From assembly GCA_000004695.1 (NCBI GenBank), contig CM000151.3, positions 8,352,001 to 8,416,000 on the forward strand: a stretch of 64,000 bases of DNA, given 5' to 3'. The position numbers were made by a program, and so were the translations under genes. The DNA comes from Dictyostelium discoideum. Its lineage: Eukaryota. This document shows positions 7,557 through 64,000 of this stretch, one piece after another. Every line of letters starts with the position of its first letter. Position 1 is the stretch's first letter. The notes below the pieces were generated by a model. It had not been told where the DNA came from. It saw only the letters and a list, made by a program, of their open reading frames with translations, and searched no databases.

Positions 7557-10500
7557 TTATGAGTAGTTGGTGTTATATGAGCAGTATGGTATGAAGTGTT
7601 CCGGGATGTTTATGGTCATGAGTTTCGAGTTCCAGTTGTGGCTGAATTTTTCGAGTCTTCTTTTTATTGATGCGGTCCGATTGATTGACTCTCGGTTATC
7701 AGTGCATCTTAGTTCTTGACGTAGTTGTTTTTCTACTATCTTTCTTGTTCTATCCCATTCGGCATCTCTCGCTTTTTTGATTTTATGAATTATTTGGTTC
7801 TCTGTTATTATTGTAGTGTTATCGTTGAATTTTATTTGATTTCTTCTGTACCATATCGATTCCATAATGGCTCCTATCAGATTTGATGAGAATGGTGTGA
7901 GTAGTTTTCCGAGAACTTTTTCGCTCCATGGACCGTGGTAAGTGTTGTTGGAGTCTTTACAGACCTTTTGATAGATTGAGTCGATATTCTGTTTTATTGA
8001 TTTGCATTCGAAGAAGATGTGCATAGACGATTCTTCTTCTTTACATGAGTGGCAATTCTCCCCATGGTGTTTTGGAAGTGCCTTGAGTAGATATCTCCAT
8101 GCTAAGTCTCTTCCTTTGATAGTTGTGATTGATCTGGCTTCTCTAAATGGTAGAATTGGGTGATTAATGTTCTTTTGAATCAGTTTTTGACCTGTTGTTG
8201 GCTGGTGTTTGTTCCATCCCTTGTATTTGATATCCATCATGTTTCTATAGATTACTTTTAATTTTTGTTTGTTTTCGTATTTGGGTTTGACTTGGTTTAG
8301 TTTGAGAGTTATTCGCTCTCTTGGGTGGTGCAACAACTTCCAGGCTTTCCAGCATTTGATATGAATCCTTGATAGTGAGTTTTCTTTTTCCGACTTCCAG
8401 ACTTCCATATGTGGAGGGCAGTTCTGGTCGTCTTTTTCTCTGAGGTATTGTTCGTATATCCATGCTTTCTGGGCATTGGATCTGGTTGCCATATTCCAGA
8501 GTTCCAGGCCTCCAATTTCATAGTCTCTTCTGCTCCTTTCTTTTGAGATAGCCCACCTGTCCCCTTTGAATAACATGTTGGCATTAACGTTCTCCAGTTT
8601 CTTTATGTCATTTATTTCGTTGATGTATAGTTGGAATGTTAGTTGGGACAGGAGGTATGATTTGAGGATTGTGATTCTACCTTTTAGCGTTGATGACACG
8701 CTCGAGTAGCATTTTGTGAGGTTTTCCAGTTTGTTCACCGTATCATCTACTTTGCTTATTACACCTTTGCGGTTGAAGAAAAAGCCAAGATATCTTTCTT
8801 CTTCTTTCGCCCCAATTGTCTTATATTTGGTCTTTATCTTTGGGTTTTTAGTGATGCATACACATTTATTATCGTTTATTTTTGCTGCTGTGGCTTGGCA
8901 AAATTTTATAACTTTCATATCCATTTTATCTGCGTCATCTATGTTACTGGCTAGTGTGACTGTGTCGTCTGCATATTGTCCAATCTTCATCGAATTGTTC
9001 TGATTGAGTTTTATGCCTATTATGGTATTGTCTTTTCTTATTGATGTTGATAAGCATTCACATACTATAGCGAAGAGAGTTGGTGAAATTGGGTCGCCCT
9101 GTTTTGTACCTCTTCCTGCTCTGAAGGATTCAGAGAGTTGTCCATTTACCATGACCCTTATGTTGGTGTTCGTTAACATGCTTAGTATTGTGTTTGTTAT
9201 TTTCCGAGGGAACTTTAGATGGTTTAGAGTCCTTATTAACGCTTTATGAGATATTGAATCGAAGGCTTTTTCGAAGTCATAAAAGGTGATTATCGTGTTT
9301 CTATCACTCTTTTCCATTGCTAAATCCAAAGCTATAATGTTGTTGTGGAGTAGCCTTCCTGGTATAAAACCGTTCTGGTACTTTGAGATTATGTTTGGCA
9401 GGATTTTTAGTATTCTATTGTTGATTATTTTTGAGTAGATTTTGTAGTCTACGTTGAGTAACGTTATTGGTCTTCTGTTTGAGATTTCCAAGACATCCCC
9501 TTTACCTTTGTATATTGATGTAAGGATACCGTTCTTGAATTCTGTTGGAATTTCATTGTTTAAAAAGAAGTTGAATAGTTCTGTGAGGATTGGAATTAGT
9601 TTGTGTTGGTGGATTTTATAGAATGAAGATGTTATTCCATCTTCTCCTGGTGATTTACCTTCTGCTATCTTTTCTATTGCTAGCTTAACCTCATATTCTT
9701 CGATTCTGTCTTCCATCTCTGTTAATTTTTTTTTATCTATTGGTGGGTTCCAGGTGCTTAGAAGTTCTGTATGTGTTTCTTGGTCGCATTCTTTCTCTTT
9801 GAAGAGTGTCTCGTAATATTTTCTGAAGCAATCTGTTATTTCTTTTTGTTCTGTTTCGATTTCTCCATTGGATGGGTTCTTTATTCTGTGAATCTGGGAG
9901 CCCGAGTCTCTTTTTTTAAGAATAGATGTAAGGAGATTTGATGCTATTTCTTTATTGTTGATGTAGTTGATTGAGCTTTTGATCATTCTGTCTATTCTTT
10001 CTTCTTCTTGAAGTATTGTTATTTCGTTCGATATTGTTTCTTTTTCATATTTGTTTTTTGTTTTTGTGTGTTCATTTGCTAGATTTGATAGCGTTTTTTT
10101 TCTCTCTAGTATTCTTTTCTTTTCTGTTGTAATGCATTGTTTTTTTATTTTTTTTTTGAACTTAATCCAGTATTCCGTTATGTTAAGGTTTTTTCTTTTG
10201 GTTTCCTGGTAGTGGTCGATTATTTTTTCTATCTTTTTTATTGTTTTATCTTCTTTAATTATTATTGAGTTCATTTTCCATAGGGGTGATTTGTATATTT
10301 TTGTGAAATTTGGTATTTTGAAATCCATCACTACTATGTTATGGTCTGATTTGTTTATTTTATCTATTATCTTGTACGAGTGATTGAGTTGGTGCATCTT
10401 TGTTGATAAGAATGTTCTATCGATTAGTTTATCTTTGAAGGTTGTTTTAGTTGTTGAATTTGGTAGTATTTCGGTGAGTCCTACTTCCATCATTAGGAAT

Positions 10501-54381: not shown

Positions 54382-55197
54382 ATGATAATTATTCTAATTG
54401 TTTTTATTATATTGACATTTAATAATATAGTTAAAAGTGAAGTTATTCAATTTATTGAATGGGATAATATAACACAAATAAATAATTTGCATTTAGAGTT
54501 TAAAATGGGTTCAACAGTTTTATTTTCAGTTTCAAATAATACAGGTGATCATAACATAGTTATTAAAGAATCTTTTTTTAATTCTTCAGAAACATTAATA
54601 AAATCACCAATACTAAATTTTAATAATAATCAAATTTACTTTATATATACATTTATTAAAGATGGAAATTATTTAATAACTGATGATTTCTCAAAAAATT
54701 CAATGGATATTAAAATTTCCTCTCCTCAATTTAATCAACAATCTTCAAACTCTTCAAAATCTTTAAATTATGATTCTTTAAATAATATCACATTCAGTAG
54801 TAGTAGTAATGACAATGATGGTAATAGTAATGAAATTTCTCAAGAAAATGAAAATTTGGATTTTAATAAATTTTTTAAAGATTCAAAAGAGGAATTGAAT
54901 TATACTTATTCAACAAATTTAAATAATAAAAAATCAATTTATGACTTTTTTTCAAATTTTACAATTTCTTCATCAAATTCAACAATTAAAAATTCAACAA
55001 AATCAAAAAAACCAACCACTATAATTGTTCGTAGTCATCATAATGAAAACTCAGACATTCTTTTAAACTCTGATTCAAACTCAAATTCAAACTCAATTTC
55101 TAACCAAAATTCACACCAAAATTCAAATTCTAATTCAATACAACCACCTTCTATATATTATTTAATTATCTATGTATCGATTTTATTTATATTTTAA
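54382..55197 (+). CDS. Ser/Asn-rich putative GPI-anchored surface protein (271 aa); paralog of the gene at 61951
   Basis: Signal peptide; conserved N-terminal domain (...GSTVLFSVSNNTGDHNIVIKESF...); Ser/Asn-rich linker; C-terminal hydrophobic tail consistent with a GPI-attachment signal. Confidence 0.6.
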   Translation: MIIILIVFIILTFNNIVKSEVIQFIEWDNITQINNLHLEFKMGSTVLFSVSNNTGDHNIVIKESFFNSSETLIKSPILNFNNNQIYFIYTFIKDGNYLITDDFSKNSMDIKISSPQFNQQSSNSSKSLNYDSLNNITFSSSSNDNDGNSNEISQENENLDFNKFFKDSKEELNYTYSTNLNNKKSIYDFFSNFTISSSNSTIKNSTKSKKPTTIIVRSHHNENSDILLNSDSNSNSNSISNQNSHQNSNSNSIQPPSIYYLIIYVSILFIF

Positions 55198-55668: not shown

Positions 55669-58405
55669 CTCTTTTGAAAATAAAGAATTATATTTAGGTT
55701 CAGATAGTTTTATAAATACAACAAGTAAATGTTTAGAACCAGATCATCCATTATCAAAATATAGTTTAGGTATAAAAAGTGAAATTGAAAATAGCTTTAA
55801 TGGTTGGAGTAATAATCAACAAGAGAATTTTCAAAAGTTGGTTAATTATTTAAATGGTTTAGAGAGTGCAAGATTAAAGATTGAAAATTTTGATAATAAT
55901 GGTTTTAGAGATTTTAAATTAAAAACTGAAATATTTAAAGATGTTAACAATCTATTCGATTCAAAATCTGAAAATTTCGATATCCCATTAATCAATATAC
56001 AATTCTCATTTAATAGTTTATTTCAATCAATTAATTCAATTCATAATAGTTTTTCTTTTATCTTACAACAGCAAATTAAATTTAAAAGTCCAGTTTCATC
56101 TTTACAACCTGTATCACAACCAATTTCTAAACCAAGACCAACTTCTGTAATATTACAAAATCAACAACAGCAACAACAACAACAACAAAATGATAATAAT
56201 AATAATAATGTTCAAACAACACCTATTGTACCAAATAGACCAACATATAAGCCACCAATACAAAGACCATTGTCTACTAATTTAAATAATGTTAATAATG
56301 GTAATTCTAATGTTGGTAGTTTGAGAGCTGCACCTGCTCCTATTTCATCTTCAAATGTTGAACAACCACAAAAACCAGTTACACCAACATATAAACCACC
56401 AACCCAAAGACCATTATCAACAAATTTAAGTAGTGGTGTTGTGAGACCTGCTCCTATTCCTATTTCTACTTCAACTGAAGAACCACAAAAACCAGTAACG
56501 CCAACATATAAACCACCAACACAAAGACCATTATCAACAAATTTAAGTAATGGTGTTGTGAGACCTGCCCCTATTCCTATTTCTTCTTCAACTGAAGAAC
56601 CACAAAAACCAGTAACACCAACATATAAACCACCAACACAAAGACCACTATCTACAAATTTAAGTAATGGTGTTTTAAGACCTGCACCACCACCATCTAT
56701 AAATTCTACACCTACATCTTTACCTTCTCAACCCACACCTAATACATTTAAAAAACCAAATTATATAAAACCAATGCCAGCATCACAAGAACAACAACAT
56801 CAACAACAACAACAGCAACTACAACAACAGGAGCAGCAATCAATAAAACCTCAACCAACTCCATCTTTCCAACGTCCAACTCCATCTTTTAATAAACCAT
56901 CACCATCACCATCACCATCAACTCTTGCTCAACAAACACAAACAACAGACTTTCAACCTCAAAGACCCCCACCACCATCAATTCAACCTCAAAGACCTCC
57001 ACCACCATCAACTCAACCTCAAAGACCTCCACCACCATCAATTCAACAACAACCAGTTCCAGTTGATAATAGCTATAATAAAAATGAAAAGAAAAAGGAT
57101 TCACTATCACTTTTTGGAAAGAAATTATCAACAGCATTCAAAAGTTTGGATGTTTCAAGTGGTTCTAGTTCTGGAAGATCTTCAATGATGGGATTTGGAT
57201 TTCCTACTGATATGCTTGGTCCAAAACTTGAAGATATAGTAAATGATTTTGAATATCATAAAAAAAGTAAAGTATCTACATTTTTTTTTATTATTATTTT
57301 TATTATTATTATTATTTTTAATTATTTATTTTACTAATTTTTATTATTTTTTAGAATGGGATGGATATGGTAAAAGATTTAAATTGGTTAAAAAGTATAC
57401 ACAATCAATAAGATGGGTTGGCCATGGTAGTGCAAAGATTGAAAGTGGTAAACCAATTCCAAATCAATTGATTACAATGATTCTTACAACACCAATAACT
57501 ATGCAATCACAAGTGATAACCTATTCACAAGTTGAATTTAAAAATTCAAGAGGTAATGTCGTAACACCAACCATTGTTGAAATTCCAAATTCAGAGGTAT
57601 CCATTTATCAAGCAGATTTTCATGGTCCTCAAGAGTTTGATGAATTCTTTTGCGAGAACATTGTTGAGGCGGATTTATTCTCAATCAATTTGGAAGAGAT
57701 AAAGTCAACTCAGGAACAATCACCTTATGTTGAACCATTATCAGAGAAAGAGAATGAAATTTATTTAGTTTTTACACCAACTTTGAATTTTAATGAACCA
57801 GAGTTTGCACAATTTATTGAAAGAGAAGGATTATATCCTCAAATTGATGGAGCAAACCAACAACAAGAGACATTGTTATGTTTTGCCTATAGAGTTAGTT
57901 TATATATCAAATTACATATCTCTTATGAGATCAGTTGTGGTGATCAAAAACCATTGGTAACAATTAATAAAGGTTTAGGAAATTGTTCATCTTATTCAAA
58001 TCTATTCTGTTCAATTATGAGATATAATGGTATACCTTGTAGAATAGTTAGTGGTGTGGTTTCAAGAAAAAATAATGTCATTGATGAACCTCATGGTCAA
58101 AATGAATTTTATTTACCAAATATTGGTTGGATACCTTATAATGGTGCTGTAATGGGTGGTCCAAATGATAATTCAATCGCTTTTGCAAAATGTTTTGGTG
58201 ATCTTTACTCTTATATGATTGATACTCATATCAATTTAAGTTATGATCAACAATCTAAATCAGAACATACAGAGAGACAAAGTATTTGTGGTGAAATGGT
58301 ACCAACAAAATGTTATTTTCAACATGGTTCAACACCTTCTTTTGGTGCTCCTAAAAGTGAACATGAATTCACAAGAATTGATAATGGCGGAGTTTTAGAA
58401 TTTTA

Positions 58406-58406
<1 letters not shown>
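55484..58406 (+). CDS. Transglutaminase-like (TGc superfamily) domain protein with an N-terminal Pro-rich repeat region; 3 exons, join(55484..55592,55686..57266,57355..58406), about 913 aa
   Basis: Exon 1 MSGDSNYDIVKKEFF...CTSLK with GTAATT donor; polypyrimidine acceptor at 55685; exon 2 contains four copies of a roughly 40-aa repeat (PVTPTYKPPTQRPLSTNLSNGVVRPAPIPIS...EEPQK) and poly-Q; donor a|GTAAAG at 57267; exon 3 has TGc core GLGNCSSYSNLFCSIMRYNGIPCRIVSG...EPHGQNEFYL...WIPYNG. Confidence 0.7.
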
Positions 58407-58446
<40 letters not shown>

Positions 58447-58518
58447 TAATAAATTTAAATGTTTTTCATTTTGTAATAGTATAATAAATGTTACAATAAT
58501 TTTTGTACAATTTTTTAT

Positions 58519-58833
58519 TTAATGACAAGCACCACATTTTGCAGAGGCAGCGGCAGCAGCTGAAAGTGAGAGATCAACTTTGGCTTTAATATCAATGTTT
58601 GCAAGGATTGCTGCACCTGCTGCTGGTTTATCACATCCACCACATGCAACACTGTTTGAACCCATTGATAATGATGAACCACTGAAAGAATTTAAACTTG
58701 ATTTTGATGAAGTGTTAGTTTTTGAGATTGAGGTAATTGAAGCTATATTTTTTGGATAAAAAAAAAAAAGTTAATATATTTTAATAAATAAATATATAAA
58801 ATTAATTAATAAACATTTACAAAAGAGTGTCAT
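58519..58833 (-). CDS. hssA/2C/7E-family small Ser/Gly/Ala-rich protein, copy 1; complement(join(58519..58742,58821..58833)), 78 aa
   Basis: Micro-exon 1 ATGACACTCTTTT|gtaaat (MTLF-); acceptor atatag|; exon 2 ...[63 protein letters not shown]. Confidence 0.55.
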
Positions 58834-59529
58834 TTTTAATTAATTTTTTATTTTGATTTGAAAAAAAAAAAATAAAAAAAAATAACTATTTATAGTTTTT
58901 ATAAATTAAATATAAATGATTAATTATCTTAAAAATAAAATTTTTTGTTGTAAAACATTTTTTCAAAATATTTTATCGTTTCATAATTTTTTTTTTGTTT
59001 AAATCTAATATCTATTAATCATATATCTAAAAACCACATTTTAATTTTTTTTTTTTTTTTTTATTTTTATTTTTATTTTTTTTTTATTTATTTATTTATT
59101 TATTTTTTTTAGACATAATTGACATTTTAAATTATATTTAATTTTTTAATTTATTTTTTAATTTCAAAATAGTCTTTCTATTTTTAAAATGTTTTTTTGA
59201 CAATCTTTATGAAATAAAATAAAATTTTATCTGAATGTAATGTTTTTTTTTTTTTATCAGATAAACATTAACTACTTCTTTTAAAAGATATATTAATTAT
59301 TAATTATAATAAAGATGATATATTATGGATTTGGGTGTGATTTTTATAGTAAAAAATTAAAAACTCATTATAATTAATAAAATAAAAATATAAATAAAAA
59401 AAAAATAAAAAAAATAAAAATAAAAAAAAAAGAAAAAAGAAAAAAGAAAAAAATAAAAAAAAAAACTATAAATTAAAATTAAAATTAATTATATTTTCAT
59501 TAAACAATCAATCAAAACAAATTATTAAA

Positions 59530-59881
59530 ATGACACTTTTCTGTAAATATAATATAAAATAAATATTATTTATTAAATATTTTATAATATTTTTATTTTA
59601 AATACTAATATTTAATTATTTATTTTCCAAATTTTGTTAAAAAAAAAAAATAATTAGCTTCTATTACTTCAATCTCAAAAACTAACACTTCATCAAAATC
59701 AAGTGTAAATTCTCTCAGTGGTTCATCATTATCAATGGGTTCAAACAGTGTTGCATGTGGTGGATGTGATAAACCAGCAGCAGGTGCAGCAATCCTTGCA
59801 AACATTGATATTAAAGCAAAAGTTGATCTCTCACTTTCAGCTGCTGCCGCTGCCTCTGCAAAATGTGGTGCTTGTCATTAA
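59530..59881 (+). CDS. hssA/2C/7E-family small protein, copy 2 (inverted duplicate of copy 1); join(59530..59542,59658..59881), 78 aa
   Basis: ATGACACTTTTCT|gtaaat; acceptor taattag|; exon 2 nearly identical to copy 1 ([10 protein letters not shown] versus [10 protein letters not shown]). The track ORF 59620..59805 is its antisense. Confidence 0.55.
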
Positions 59882-60295
59882 ATAAAAAAAAAAAAAATTG
59901 CAAAAAATTATTGTAATTTTAATCAGTAACATTACCAAATAAATTTTAAAAATATAAACAACCAATATAAAAAAAAAAAAAAAAAAAAAATTGATTATTT
60001 GTGAATTTTAAAGAATTGAGAAACACTAATAAAAAATTATCAATGAAATGATTTTTAAAATAATCATTTTCATATCCAAAAAGGTTTTTTAGTTTTTTTT
60101 TAAAAAAATACTTAAATTTTAAAGTGCCAAAAAAATTTTTCTAAAAATATCTTTTTCTAATATCTAATTTTTTATTTTTTTAATTTTTATTTTTATTTTT
60201 TTTTTTTTATTGACGTTTTTCAATTTTATTTTTAATATAAAATCCAAACAAAAAAAACCATTGTCATTATTTTTAAAATCAATACTCTATTTAAA

Positions 60296-60932
60296 ATGCT
60301 TACTAATAGATTTTCAATTATTTATATAATATTTTTAACTGTGTTCACATTCACTGGTGTAAATTCAACTAGCTTGTTTTCATTTACTCATGAAACTGAT
60401 AATTTTTTCCAACTTGATTTATTAAATGGTGATTTAGCTGTAAATCATACCATTTATCAAACTCTTAAATATTATCATGTTATTAATTATGATTCAAATT
60501 CCCAAGTAGTAAGTATAAAAAAAATAAAAAAAATGAAAAAAAAAAAAAAAATAAAAAAATAAAAAAAAAAATAAAAAATCTCATCTTTAAATCTAACAAA
60601 AAAAAAAAAAATAAAAAAAAAAAAAAATAGTTTACCTTATTTTGTAGTAATGGTAGTATGTATGATGGAGGTATCAATTATATGTCATTAAAATATAGCG
60701 TAAAACATAATAAATTCTATGACGAAAGTGAATCAGTTTTAGTAGATGCTCAATTTGTATACACTTCACTTTTTCAATTGGTTAACAATGTTTATTATGT
60801 ACCAATTATTTTAGATTCTTATCAAAGATATTCAATGTTGGCAATTGATTTTAATCATAATTCAAGGTATTTAATTATTATTATTATTAATATTATTATT
60901 TTATACGTAATTAATTATTCTAATCTTTTTTT

Positions 60933-60964
<32 letters not shown>

Positions 60965-61542
60965 CTACAAATAAAAGTAATATTATTGATTTTGAAATGG
61001 ATGATTTTAATTTAGGATATTATCCAACAAGTAATTTTAACAATCAAACTAATAAACTTTATACATTATATTTTGGTGCATATGGAAATCCATATATTCA
61101 AGTTTTAAATTTACCAATTAATAATGGAAGTGAAAGTGGTCAAGAAGTTTATAAATTCAAAGCACAAATGCCAGTTCTCTCAAATTTAAATCCAATTGGT
61201 CAATTATTTAGTGTTCGAAATAATGAACAAATTTATTATATTACAAGAATTAATGATAATCTTGTTGTTTGTGAAATTGATTTAGAGAATTTAGAATGTA
61301 ATAATGTATTTTCAATTGGAAATATATATACCAATATGGATACCTCATACTTTTTCTCTTATGAAAATTCAGAATTAATTTCAATTCAAGAAATTTTAGA
61401 TCAACATAGTAATCCAATTGGTGCTGAATATCAAGTGGTTGATTTAAATAATTTCAAAGTTAAAAATACCTATAAAAGTTCTGATCTCTTTAGTAAAGGT
61501 CCAAATAGTCTTGATAATTTCTTTTATTTTTCAAATAATTAA
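60296..61542 (+). CDS. Secreted protein of unknown function; 3 exons, approximately join(60296..60508,60631..60866,60978..61542), about 337 aa
   Basis: Signal peptide MLTNRFSIIYIIFLTVFTFTGVNS. Donor GTAAGT near 60509, acceptor aaaaatag| (60630), second donor ag|GTATTT (60867), acceptor ataaaag| (60977). All junctions are in frame with the track ORFs 60296.. and 60658..61542. Coordinates around 60480-60560 have a possible +/-1 uncertainty. Confidence 0.5.
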
Positions 61543-61950: not shown

Positions 61951-62547
61951 ATGTTTAATTCTATTAAAACTTTAATTTTATTAATATTATGTTTTTCCAA
62001 TTATTTTATTTTTTGTCAAGAATCAGTACATACAGTTAATATAGATAATTTTCCACCATTGTTGACATTATTTAATGGTTCAACAATATTATTTGTAGTT
62101 GGATTGAATACTGGTGATCATATTATTTTTACCAAGGTAACACCAAAAGGTGTTCAACCATTTACATCACCAGTTTTAAATTTACGTAGATTACAACCAT
62201 CATTTTCATATACTTTCAGTGATGCCGGCAAATATGTTATAATGGATATGTATACCTCTGAAGAAATGAATTTAACAATTATTGATACCTTATCACCATT
62301 GTCATCATCATCATCATCATCTGATTCAACCAATAATCAATCAAAATCTTCCTCTTCCAACTCTGTAAATGCAAGTTCATCATCAACAAAACCTCCAATT
62401 TCATCTTTGGAAACTGATTCTTTAAATAATTCAACTTCAACCACAACTACAACTTCTAAATCGTCACATGAAAAGAATGAATCAATTCAACTTTTAAGTT
62501 CATTTAGTAATTTGATATTCATTTCTATCATATTATTATCACTTTAA
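61951..62547 (+). CDS. Ser-rich putative GPI-anchored surface protein (198 aa); paralog of 54382..55197
   Basis: Signal peptide; shared domain (...GSTILFVVGLNTGDHIIFTKV...); poly-Ser linker; C-terminal hydrophobic tail. Confidence 0.6.
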   Translation: MFNSIKTLILLILCFSNYFIFCQESVHTVNIDNFPPLLTLFNGSTILFVVGLNTGDHIIFTKVTPKGVQPFTSPVLNLRRLQPSFSYTFSDAGKYVIMDMYTSEEMNLTIIDTLSPLSSSSSSSDSTNNQSKSSSSNSVNASSSSTKPPISSLETDSLNNSTSTTTTTSKSSHEKNESIQLLSSFSNLIFISIILLSL

Positions 62548-62950: not shown

Positions 62951-63809
62951 TTTAAAATAAAAAATAAAAATAAAAATAAAAATTGTAGTTATTATTTATT
63001 TTTTAAAATATTATGATTATTAGTATTATTTTTAAATATAAATTAATAAAATAAATGTAATTAGGCAAAATTACTATTTCAATATCAAAATCATAAAACT
63101 TATCAAAATAAATTTATAAAATATTTTTTGGTGGATAACTAAAATCAATGAGTTCAAACAATTGTGTTTCAAGTATTAAAAAATTTTAATAACCATGTGG
63201 TTTCTATATATTTTTAACCTCTCCATTTTAACTGGTTGTTATTAGTAATACCAGTGGTTTTTTTCAAATATTGCTAAAAAAAATAATTAAAAAATTAAAA
63301 ATGTTTAAAAATTAAAACAAAATATATATAATCATACAATACAAAATTACAAAAAATAAAATTTTTATTTTTAGATTTCCTCATGTGTGGTTTTTTTTTT
63401 TTTTATCAGTAAAAAGAAAAATTGTTAATATCACTTTTACATGATGAATTAATTTGGTTGTGAATTATTCTATCATCAAAAATTCTTATTAAAATAAAAT
63501 TTCTTTGTTCAAATGTATAATAATAATAAAAAAATTAATAAATTCAAATAATAAAATTTTAAAAAAAAATAATAATAAAATTTTGAATTAAAAAAAAAAA
63601 AAAAAGTATAAATAAAAAAAAAAAAATAATAATAATAACAACAACAATAAATAATATTAAACAAAAACTTCTAAAAAAAAATATATAATTAAAATGACAA
63701 TTATTGGTAAATTATTTATAAAAACTTAAAAACTATTTTAAAATTTTATTTATTTTATTAATTTATTTATTTCATTTAAATAATAAAAAAATAAAATAAT
63801 AGAATCTAT

Positions 63810-64000
63810 TTATTCATTATCCCCAGCATTATCACCAAAAACTGGACCAACTAACTCAAATCTTACTCCAATAAATGATCCATTGTTATTATCACCAAAT
63901 CCAAGTGGACTACACGGTGGCGCATCACCAAACCTAAAAGCTTGCCTTAGAAACAAACCCTTACTCATAAATTTTGATCTTAACATGACTACAATCTCAT
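63810..64000 (-). CDS. 3' end of a minus-strand gene, partial; continues beyond the window end
   Basis: Open frame from the window edge to TAA at 63810-63812 (...FGDAPPCSPLGFGDNNNGSFIGVRFELVGPVFGDNAGDNE*). No upstream stop within the window. Confidence 0.4.
   Translation of the reverse strand, partial: EIVVMLRSKFMSKGLFLRQAFRFGDAPPCSPLGFGDNNNGSFIGVRFELVGPVFGDNAGDNE

Follow-up and report, generated by a model that had tools for sequence, protein, structure and literature searches.

An old head-to-head pair of hssA/2C/7E-family genes in Dictyostelium discoideum with second exons that very probably evolve in concert

Introduction

How do two small genes arranged head to head come to encode nearly the same protein when their introns and promoters can scarcely be aligned? 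This question is raised by a 1.4-kb palindromic locus on chromosome 2 of Dictyostelium discoideum, which lies within a stretch of 64,000 nucleotides (nt) that was analyzed as a whole and is referred to here as the window (contig CM000151.3, positions 8,352,001 to 8,416,000; coordinates below count from the first nucleotide of this stretch unless another sequence is named). A sequence-only reading had placed at this locus two genes of the hssA/2C/7E type, which we term M (minus strand) and P (plus strand), and had implied either recent inverted duplication or concerted evolution. Comparison with the syntenic locus of D. firmibasis, where the same pair exists, upheld the second of these and spoke against the first, on the basis of the conserved pair and of a marked contrast in synonymous divergence. 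We consider it highly probable that M and P represent an old pair of family genes, each with a TATA promoter of its own, whose second exons have been subject to conversion and whose central segment probably flipped once.

Results

Two intact micro-exon genes flank an AT-rich spacer

A repeat search revealed an inverted repeat with 243-nt arms (58511-58753 and 59647-59889) that are 97% complementary and lie 893 nt apart, each arm comprising a second exon and a few flanking bases, so that the earlier estimate of about 95% over about 240 bp was slightly conservative (a first blastn dot-plot had been swamped by low-complexity matches). In silico splicing reproduced exactly the predicted arrangement of two head-to-head genes of 78 codons, in each of which a GTAAAT intron separates a first exon of 13 nt from a second of 224 nt, and both M (58519-58833, minus strand) and P (59530-59881, plus strand) were found to be intact, each encoding 78 amino acids (aa). 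The parts of the two genes are:

58519..58742, minus strand: M exon 2, including the TAA stop; left arm; 224 nt; PF05710 match of 57.1 bits
58743..58820, minus strand: M intron; 78 nt, GTAAAT...ATAG, phase 1
58821..58833, minus strand: M exon 1 (ATGACACTCTTTT); 13 nt, shared without change by the minus-strand gene of D. firmibasis
59530..59542, plus strand: P exon 1 (ATGACACTTTTCT); 13 nt
59543..59657, plus strand: P intron; 115 nt, GTAAAT...TTAG, phase 1
59658..59881, plus strand: P exon 2, including the TAA stop; right arm; 224 nt; PF05710 match of 57.8 bits

The coding sequences of M and P differ at 7 of 237 nt. Five of these differences are synonymous and the other two are the replacements V21L and L24F, in agreement with the two substitutions that had been read from the translations. 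No further copy was detected within the window by tblastn. Across the pair, the window is collinear with a second, independent assembly of D. discoideum (GCA_054883475.1), which runs in the same orientation and is 99.84% identical over 2.5 kb.

A syntenic pair in D. firmibasis argues for concerted evolution

Arms of such high identity, with merely seven coding differences between them, are what would be seen if an inverted duplication had recently produced the pair in the line leading to D. discoideum and if the likeness reflected youth without any conversion. Against this, D. firmibasis was found to carry the same head-to-head pair at the syntenic site. The genome of this species is a Nanopore chromosome-level assembly whose annotation, based on messenger RNA sequencing (mRNA-seq) and on homology to D. 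discoideum proteins, was checked by hand (PMC11193728). In the relevant sequence (L003), valS is followed by a large adjacent gene, a head-to-head pair encoding 76-aa PF05710 proteins, further genes and guaD; the large gene adjoining valS stands where D. discoideum has its transglutaminase-core gene, and a gene with an Amidohydro_1 match corresponds to guaD. The L003 locus is overall opposite in orientation to the window, its flanks being reverse-complementary, and the pair is located as follows:

L003 10001-10304 (plus strand) and 9148-9449 (minus strand): D. firmibasis pair RB653_003228 / RB653_003270

The D. firmibasis pair resembles that of D. discoideum in its syntenic position, its head-to-head orientation, its exon structure (a 13-nt exon 1, with introns of 71 and 73 nt) and its high-identity inverted arms (9148-9368 and 10084-10304, 221 nt, 96%). 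It differs in the length of its products (76 aa), which are about 66% identical to those of D. discoideum at the amino acid level, in an ancestral-looking CGCN C-terminus and in a shorter spacer of 551 nt.

Synonymous (dS) and nonsynonymous (dN) divergence was then estimated by the Nei-Gojobori method for the four sequences, two per species:

Paralogues within D. discoideum: dS 0.090, dN 0.012
Paralogues within D. firmibasis: dS 0.119, dN 0.017
Between species, all four comparisons: dS 0.63-0.81, dN about 0.23

Neighboring single-copy genes gave between-species dS values of 0.50 (valS), 0.92 (DDB_G0277795) and 1.08 (DDB_G0277769). The between-species dS of the pair is therefore an ordinary neutral distance, and it is the paralogues that are 5-10 times too similar. 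Moreover, the C-terminal third and the insertions and deletions differ between the species and yet are identical in both copies within each.

The segments upstream of the second exons show the opposite pattern. Apart from the TATA box and the start context, promoter, exon 1 and intron can hardly be aligned between the two copies of a species (D. discoideum, z 4.0; D. firmibasis, z 2.8), and the M intron does not align with the P intron, from which it also differs in length (78 versus 115 nt), whereas it is alignable with the intron of the D. firmibasis minus-strand gene. Indeed, the entire 5' segment of M, promoter and intron included, is 69% identical to that of the D. firmibasis minus-strand gene over 369 columns (z 9.5). 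Had the duplicate been young, introns and promoters should be nearly the same in both copies, and recent duplication is therefore disfavored to the point of being extremely improbable. The combination of 5' conservation across species with 5' divergence within species argues that the duplication predates the split between D. discoideum and D. firmibasis, and that only exon 2 and about 40 nt of the 3' untranslated region (3'-UTR) have been homogenized since. In both species the residual differences between paralogues are clustered in the first ~75 nt of exon 2, the last ~150 nt being 99-100% identical, and such clustering next to a non-homologous intron is as expected if the diverged intron limits conversion tracts. 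On this pattern of divergence, the pair has very probably undergone concerted evolution.

Could an old duplication have kept its second exons alike with no conversion at all, because purifying selection acts very strongly on the protein or mRNA sequence? A point in favor is that a frame-shifted hssA still suppresses the culmination defect of the statA mutant, which points to function at the level of the transcript (PMC6198379). On the other hand, exon 2 has been free to change between the species, as seen in its dS of 0.63-0.81, its dN of 0.23, its insertions and deletions and its rewritten C-terminus, and the derived changes that are common to both copies in each species are not produced by selection alone. 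The spliced mRNA also folds in an ordinary manner, no unusual structure being predicted for it (z -1.0), and we regard the explanation by selection as very unlikely. We instead favor an old inverted duplication in which the near-identity of the arms would have been kept by recurrent intrachromosomal gene conversion, with the unalignable introns bounding the conversion tracts on their 5' side.

Each gene has its own core promoter within the shared spacer

The features recognized in the spacer and beyond the stop codons are:

58834..59529, no strand: intergenic spacer with both divergent promoters; 696 nt from ATG to ATG, 9.5% G+C versus 23.3% for the whole window
58888..58895, minus strand: M TATA box (CTATAAAT); 55-62 nt upstream of the ATG and followed by T runs; counterpart at L003 9502-9509
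59016..59028, minus strand: block TAATCATATATCT (sense AGATATATGATTA); 13-mer found once in the window, ~190 nt upstream of the M ATG and with a conserved counterpart in D. firmibasis
59466..59473, plus strand: P TATA box (CTATAAAT); 57-64 nt upstream of the ATG
58491..58502, minus strand: 3'-UTR motif AAATTATTGTAA after M; 17-28 nt past the stop
59905..59916, plus strand: 3'-UTR motif AAATTATTGTAA after P; 24-35 nt past the stop

The spacer thus matches the AT-rich stretch of about 700 bp that had been described. It had also been taken for a central bidirectional promoter, and this holds insofar as the intergenic region is shared; a single common promoter is not supported, each gene having its own TATA box. 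The two boxes are ~570 nt apart and have counterparts in D. firmibasis. The locus is accordingly one of two divergent core promoters inside one shared intergenic region. The conserved 13-mer contains GATA-like cores and is a candidate cis-regulatory element that could also serve as an orientation marker for the central segment. The 12-nt motif AAATTATTGTAA is present 17-35 nt past the stop in four of four genes across both species (L003 9116-9127 and 10325-10336 in D. firmibasis), occurs only four times in the 64-kb window and twice in L003, and may act in 3'-end processing or in regulation.

An apparent inversion of the central segment

Flanking synteny would pair M, which is the nearer of the two to valS, with the plus-strand gene of D. 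firmibasis, and P with the minus-strand gene. The 5' segments matched otherwise: M aligned with the minus-strand gene at the z of 9.5 given above but with the plus-strand gene at z 1.3 only. Global alignment of the central segment scored 154 in the same-strand orientation versus 98.5 in the flank-collinear one (shuffle null 49 ± 10), and the 13-mer TAATCATATATCT has the same strand and side in both loci, ~190-220 nt upstream of the ATG of the minus-strand gene. Similarly, synonymous variants that the species share sort by strand label, with codon 4 being TTT in the minus-strand genes and TTC in the plus-strand genes, and codon 8 being ACC versus ACT. The distal flanks are syntenic as expected. 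Relative to the flanking genes, the central segment of D. firmibasis would thus be opposite to that of D. discoideum, and we consider such an inversion between the species likely.

On the simplest reading, a crossover within the arms appears to have inverted promoters, first exons and introns together, and such a flip would have been functionally silent because the two coding arms are nearly identical. In terms of the conversion proposed above, at least one exchange would have been resolved as a crossover in one of the two lineages, flipping a central segment of ~0.9 kb that holds both promoters, both first exons and both introns relative to the flanking genes. The earlier remark that the palindromic arrangement could promote rearrangement is borne out to this extent by the 5' matches, the global alignment, the 13-mer and the codon variants.

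M and P are members of the hssA/2C/7E family

The assignment to the hssA family had been made together with a test by family hidden Markov model, and both proteins were recognized by PF05710 ('Coiled', HssA/B-related) at 57-58 bits, far above the gathering score of 21.4 bits (E 2e-15 for P and 3e-15 for M). The match spans only residues 1-62, equivalent to profile positions 1-54 of 90. Genes of this group, of which D. discoideum has nearly 100, are reported to have a first exon of 13 bp and a second of ~200 bp (PMC6198379), a layout to which the 13-nt exon 1, 78- or 115-nt intron and 224-nt exon 2 of M and P conform. Four annotated sigN-like members from another D. discoideum assembly (L004) also have a 13-nt exon 1 of the ATGACACTTTTTT type, with introns of 87-95 nt. 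An alignment with HssA/B-like protein 3 and a sigN-like protein contained 25 invariant columns, among them SMGSNS.ACG, and M and P carry the conserved N-terminal motifs M[TS]L[FL]S..[TS]SIS...SKSS...SMGSNS[VI]ACG.

Searches for relatives gave a consistent picture. A HMMER scan of 1.84 billion representative proteins with the exon-2 translation as query returned six relatives, and a profile search returned 21 family members, none near-identical to the pair. All profile-search matches that bear an organism name are from Dictyostelium; P0007 (metaclust) bears none. In these searches the hssA/2C/7E family is restricted to Dictyostelium. A word-indexed protein search with the 78-aa protein yielded two matches, the best homologue being D. 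firmibasis RB653_003228, and the closest protein of strain AX4 that was recovered is HssA/B-like protein 3, with only 49% identity.

Compared with the hssA/2C/7E (sigN) family at large, M and P share the 78-aa size, the N-terminal MTLFSSITSISK...SKSS motifs with their invariant columns, the 13-nt exon 1, a phase-1 intron of ~70-115 nt and an exon 2 of ~220 nt. They depart from it in an Ala-rich C-terminal third that ends in KCGACH, where a Gly-rich one with a CGCN or CCGI end is usual, and in the GTAAAT intron donor, which is GTAAGG in the sigN-like array. As the D. firmibasis orthologues end in GGACGCN, the C-terminus of the D. discoideum pair would be the derived variant. M and P are ordinary members of a known Dictyostelium-specific family, and the locus adds no new kind of biology.

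A second cluster of PF05710 genes was noticed in D. firmibasis (L005 3036-6351), with four copies, three of them in tandem on the minus strand and the fourth on the plus strand, and inverted-repeat identities of 90-99%; in the annotation the tandem ones are fused into a single 230-aa model, which looks mistaken. Homogenized clusters, including those with head-to-head members, seem to be a habit of the family and not peculiar to the locus studied here.

The products are probably translated and would act late in development

The family comprises small, Ser-rich, Cys-containing proteins that, according to the literature, are expressed in late development in prestalk or cup cells. hssA is expressed in prestalk (pstA) cells and even its frame-shifted transcripts affect culmination; sigN genes are prestalk genes, and antibodies against them disaggregate mounds; one clade of the hssA family is very highly expressed in cup cells (PMC6198379). 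Many family members are up-regulated in the mef2A mutant (PMC3640940). By membership, M and P would have a comparable developmental role. Their between-species dN/dS of about 0.3 and the four intact open reading frames (ORFs) in the two species argue for translation of the products.

An inverted repeat with an 893-nt loop also invites the view that the locus is chiefly a source of hairpin RNA or small RNAs, with a read-through transcript folding into a 243-bp stem and the ORFs being incidental. The transglutaminase-core gene upstream of the repeat is convergent with M and ends 113 nt from its stop, and the literature holds a hint of RNA-level action in the hssA family, both of which would suit such a source. 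Conversely, all four of the ORFs are intact, the splice sites, TATA boxes and start context are conserved, the between-species dN/dS is about 0.3, and the products match PF05710. No Rfam family was matched in 57500-61000. We find a primary role as hairpin source hardly credible, and hold that the locus is above all a pair of protein-coding genes.

Annotation of the pair and its mirror-image ORFs

M and P are probably already annotated in the reference. In RefSeq, exactly four proteins (XP_642471 to XP_642474) lie between DDB_G0277735 (XP_642470) and DDB_G0277769 (XP_642475), and these four slots match the count of the transglutaminase-core gene, M, P and a 337-aa gene. The odd numbers 33 to 43 of the DDB_G series would fit valS, a 271-aa gene, the transglutaminase-core gene, M, P and guaD; only DDB_G0277735 and DDB_G0277743 (guaD) are confirmed in this series, and the other assignments, that of valS to DDB_G0277733 included, follow by extrapolation. 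G0277741 has been listed as an hssA-related prestalk gene (PMC3640940). That it is P is plausible from the numbering of its neighbors. Searches for DDB_G0277739 and DDB_G0277741 in the literature and in supplements turned up no entry other than that in the Mef2A table.

The antisense ORF at 59620..59805, which the sequence-only reading had called an artefact, exists and has a mirror twin at 58580..58759. The long six-frame ORFs at the pair are only such mirror-image antisense or out-of-frame ones and a 48-aa fragment that starts at an internal Met. Those of 55-61 aa in the arms lie at 58580-58759 (plus strand), 59620-59805 (minus strand), 58515-58682 (minus strand) and 59718-59885 (plus strand). 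They owe their existence solely to the inverted copying of an exon that is relatively rich in G+C, and they are artefacts for ORF-based scans. The 48-aa ORF had no exact match in a collection of 15 billion proteins, and neither it nor the antisense ORF had an exact record in a gene-position index.

Neighboring genes

The window was assigned to chromosome 2 by exact matches to two AX4 proteins encoded by single-exon ORFs:

54382-55197: DDB_G0277735, single-exon ORF; exact match to an AX4 protein on the 8.48-Mb chromosome 2
61951-62547: DDB_G0277769, single-exon ORF; exact match to an AX4 protein on the 8.48-Mb chromosome 2

The gene order is valS (valyl-tRNA synthetase), DDB_G0277735, a gene for a 913-aa transglutaminase-core protein (ending at 58406), M, P, the 337-aa gene, DDB_G0277769, DDB_G0277795 (81 aa) and guaD (guanine deaminase). 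The transglutaminase-core gene and M are convergent with a stop-to-stop distance of 113 nt, and a run of ~35 A residues (58407-58443) lies between the stop of the former (58406) and the 3' end of the latter. The part of the transglutaminase-core gene that encodes the N-terminal half of the protein contains tandem coding repeats at ~56314-56685, inside the ORF 55838-57337, with a unit of ~120 nt and ~90% identity; these units encode ...PQKPVTPTYKPPTQRPLSTNLS... and were noticed as off-diagonal blastn matches.

DDB_G0277795 is a third micro-exon gene (63695-64000, running past the end of the window; 11738-12079 in L001; 5077-5392, minus strand, in D. firmibasis L003). It has a 13-nt exon 1 (ATGACAATTATTG), a 96-nt GTAAAT intron and an 81-aa product that ends in ...GPHCGCN, as do many HssA/B proteins. 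It had no Pfam match, and profile-profile comparison with the hssA family gave a probability of 11%; DDB_G0277795 may be a very divergent relative of that family. Its D. firmibasis orthologue encodes 80 aa with 64% identity and has the same structure. The order of the DDB_G0277795 and DDB_G0277769 orthologues differs between D. discoideum and D. firmibasis.

Discussion

The comparison of two species makes an old duplication with homogenized coding arms very probable. Several points weigh against the account given here. As to the genes themselves, the exact 78-aa proteins are not in the collection of 15 billion proteins, and the annotation of GCA_054883475.1 leaves the interval from the transglutaminase-core gene to the 337-aa gene without any gene; for D. 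discoideum, splicing and expression are deduced from what is usual in the family and from how the D. firmibasis genes are annotated. Gene conversion is read from the pattern of similarity. The inversion is called from two species and chiefly from one promoter side: the P-side 5' comparisons are non-discriminating (z 3.9 versus 3.4), the proximal 3' flanks favor neither orthology assignment (z 3.9 versus 3.7), counts of shared short k-mers are about equal in either orientation, and alignment statistics are fragile in sequence so rich in A and T. With respect to homology searches, the word-indexed search (E<=1e-20) missed the 334-aa C-terminal exon of the transglutaminase-core gene although the protein is on record in the same collection, and its negatives, like those of the profile search, are weak evidence of absence.

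Earlier work has already described the family, with its clustered genes and their micro-exon structure. What is new is the syntenic D. firmibasis pair, the concerted evolution of exon 2 and a spacer inversion that is likely to have occurred through the inverted repeat. The 1.4-kb palindromic pair would offer a compact example of both footprints of recombination between inverted repeats, homogenization of the arms and inversion of the spacer, in which promoters evolve independently while the coding arms are homogenized. There are practical consequences too. The 13-nt exon 1 hides such genes from ORF scans and from at least one recent annotation pipeline, and the near-identical arms cause reads from RNA sequencing to map to multiple places, so that the expression of M and P is separable only through reads from the UTR, exon 1 or intron.

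One might go further and imagine the 243-nt arms as a recurrent flip site at which the promoter cassette inverts repeatedly, perhaps in a manner that is polymorphic in wild D. discoideum isolates, or imagine, alternatively or additionally, that a long hairpin RNA, made by read-through transcription of the palindrome, gives rise to small RNAs acting on the ~100-member hssA family. If true, the latter would explain how hssA transcripts exert the activity that has been reported to be independent of the protein. We give very little credence to these extensions and retain the simpler account of an old pair with converted second exons and a probable flip.

Gene conversion between inverted arms is the standard explanation for homogenized copies, and arm-to-arm conversion in inverted duplicates is known from the divergent Hsp70Aa/Ab pair of Drosophila and from the palindromes of the human Y chromosome. 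As in those systems, the inverted paralogues are near-identical within a species and diverge between species, and a crossover between arms inverts the spacer. The pair described here differs from them in its tiny scale, with arms of 243 nt, and in that the homogenized tract is confined to one exon and a short stretch of 3'-UTR, whereas promoters and introns escape.

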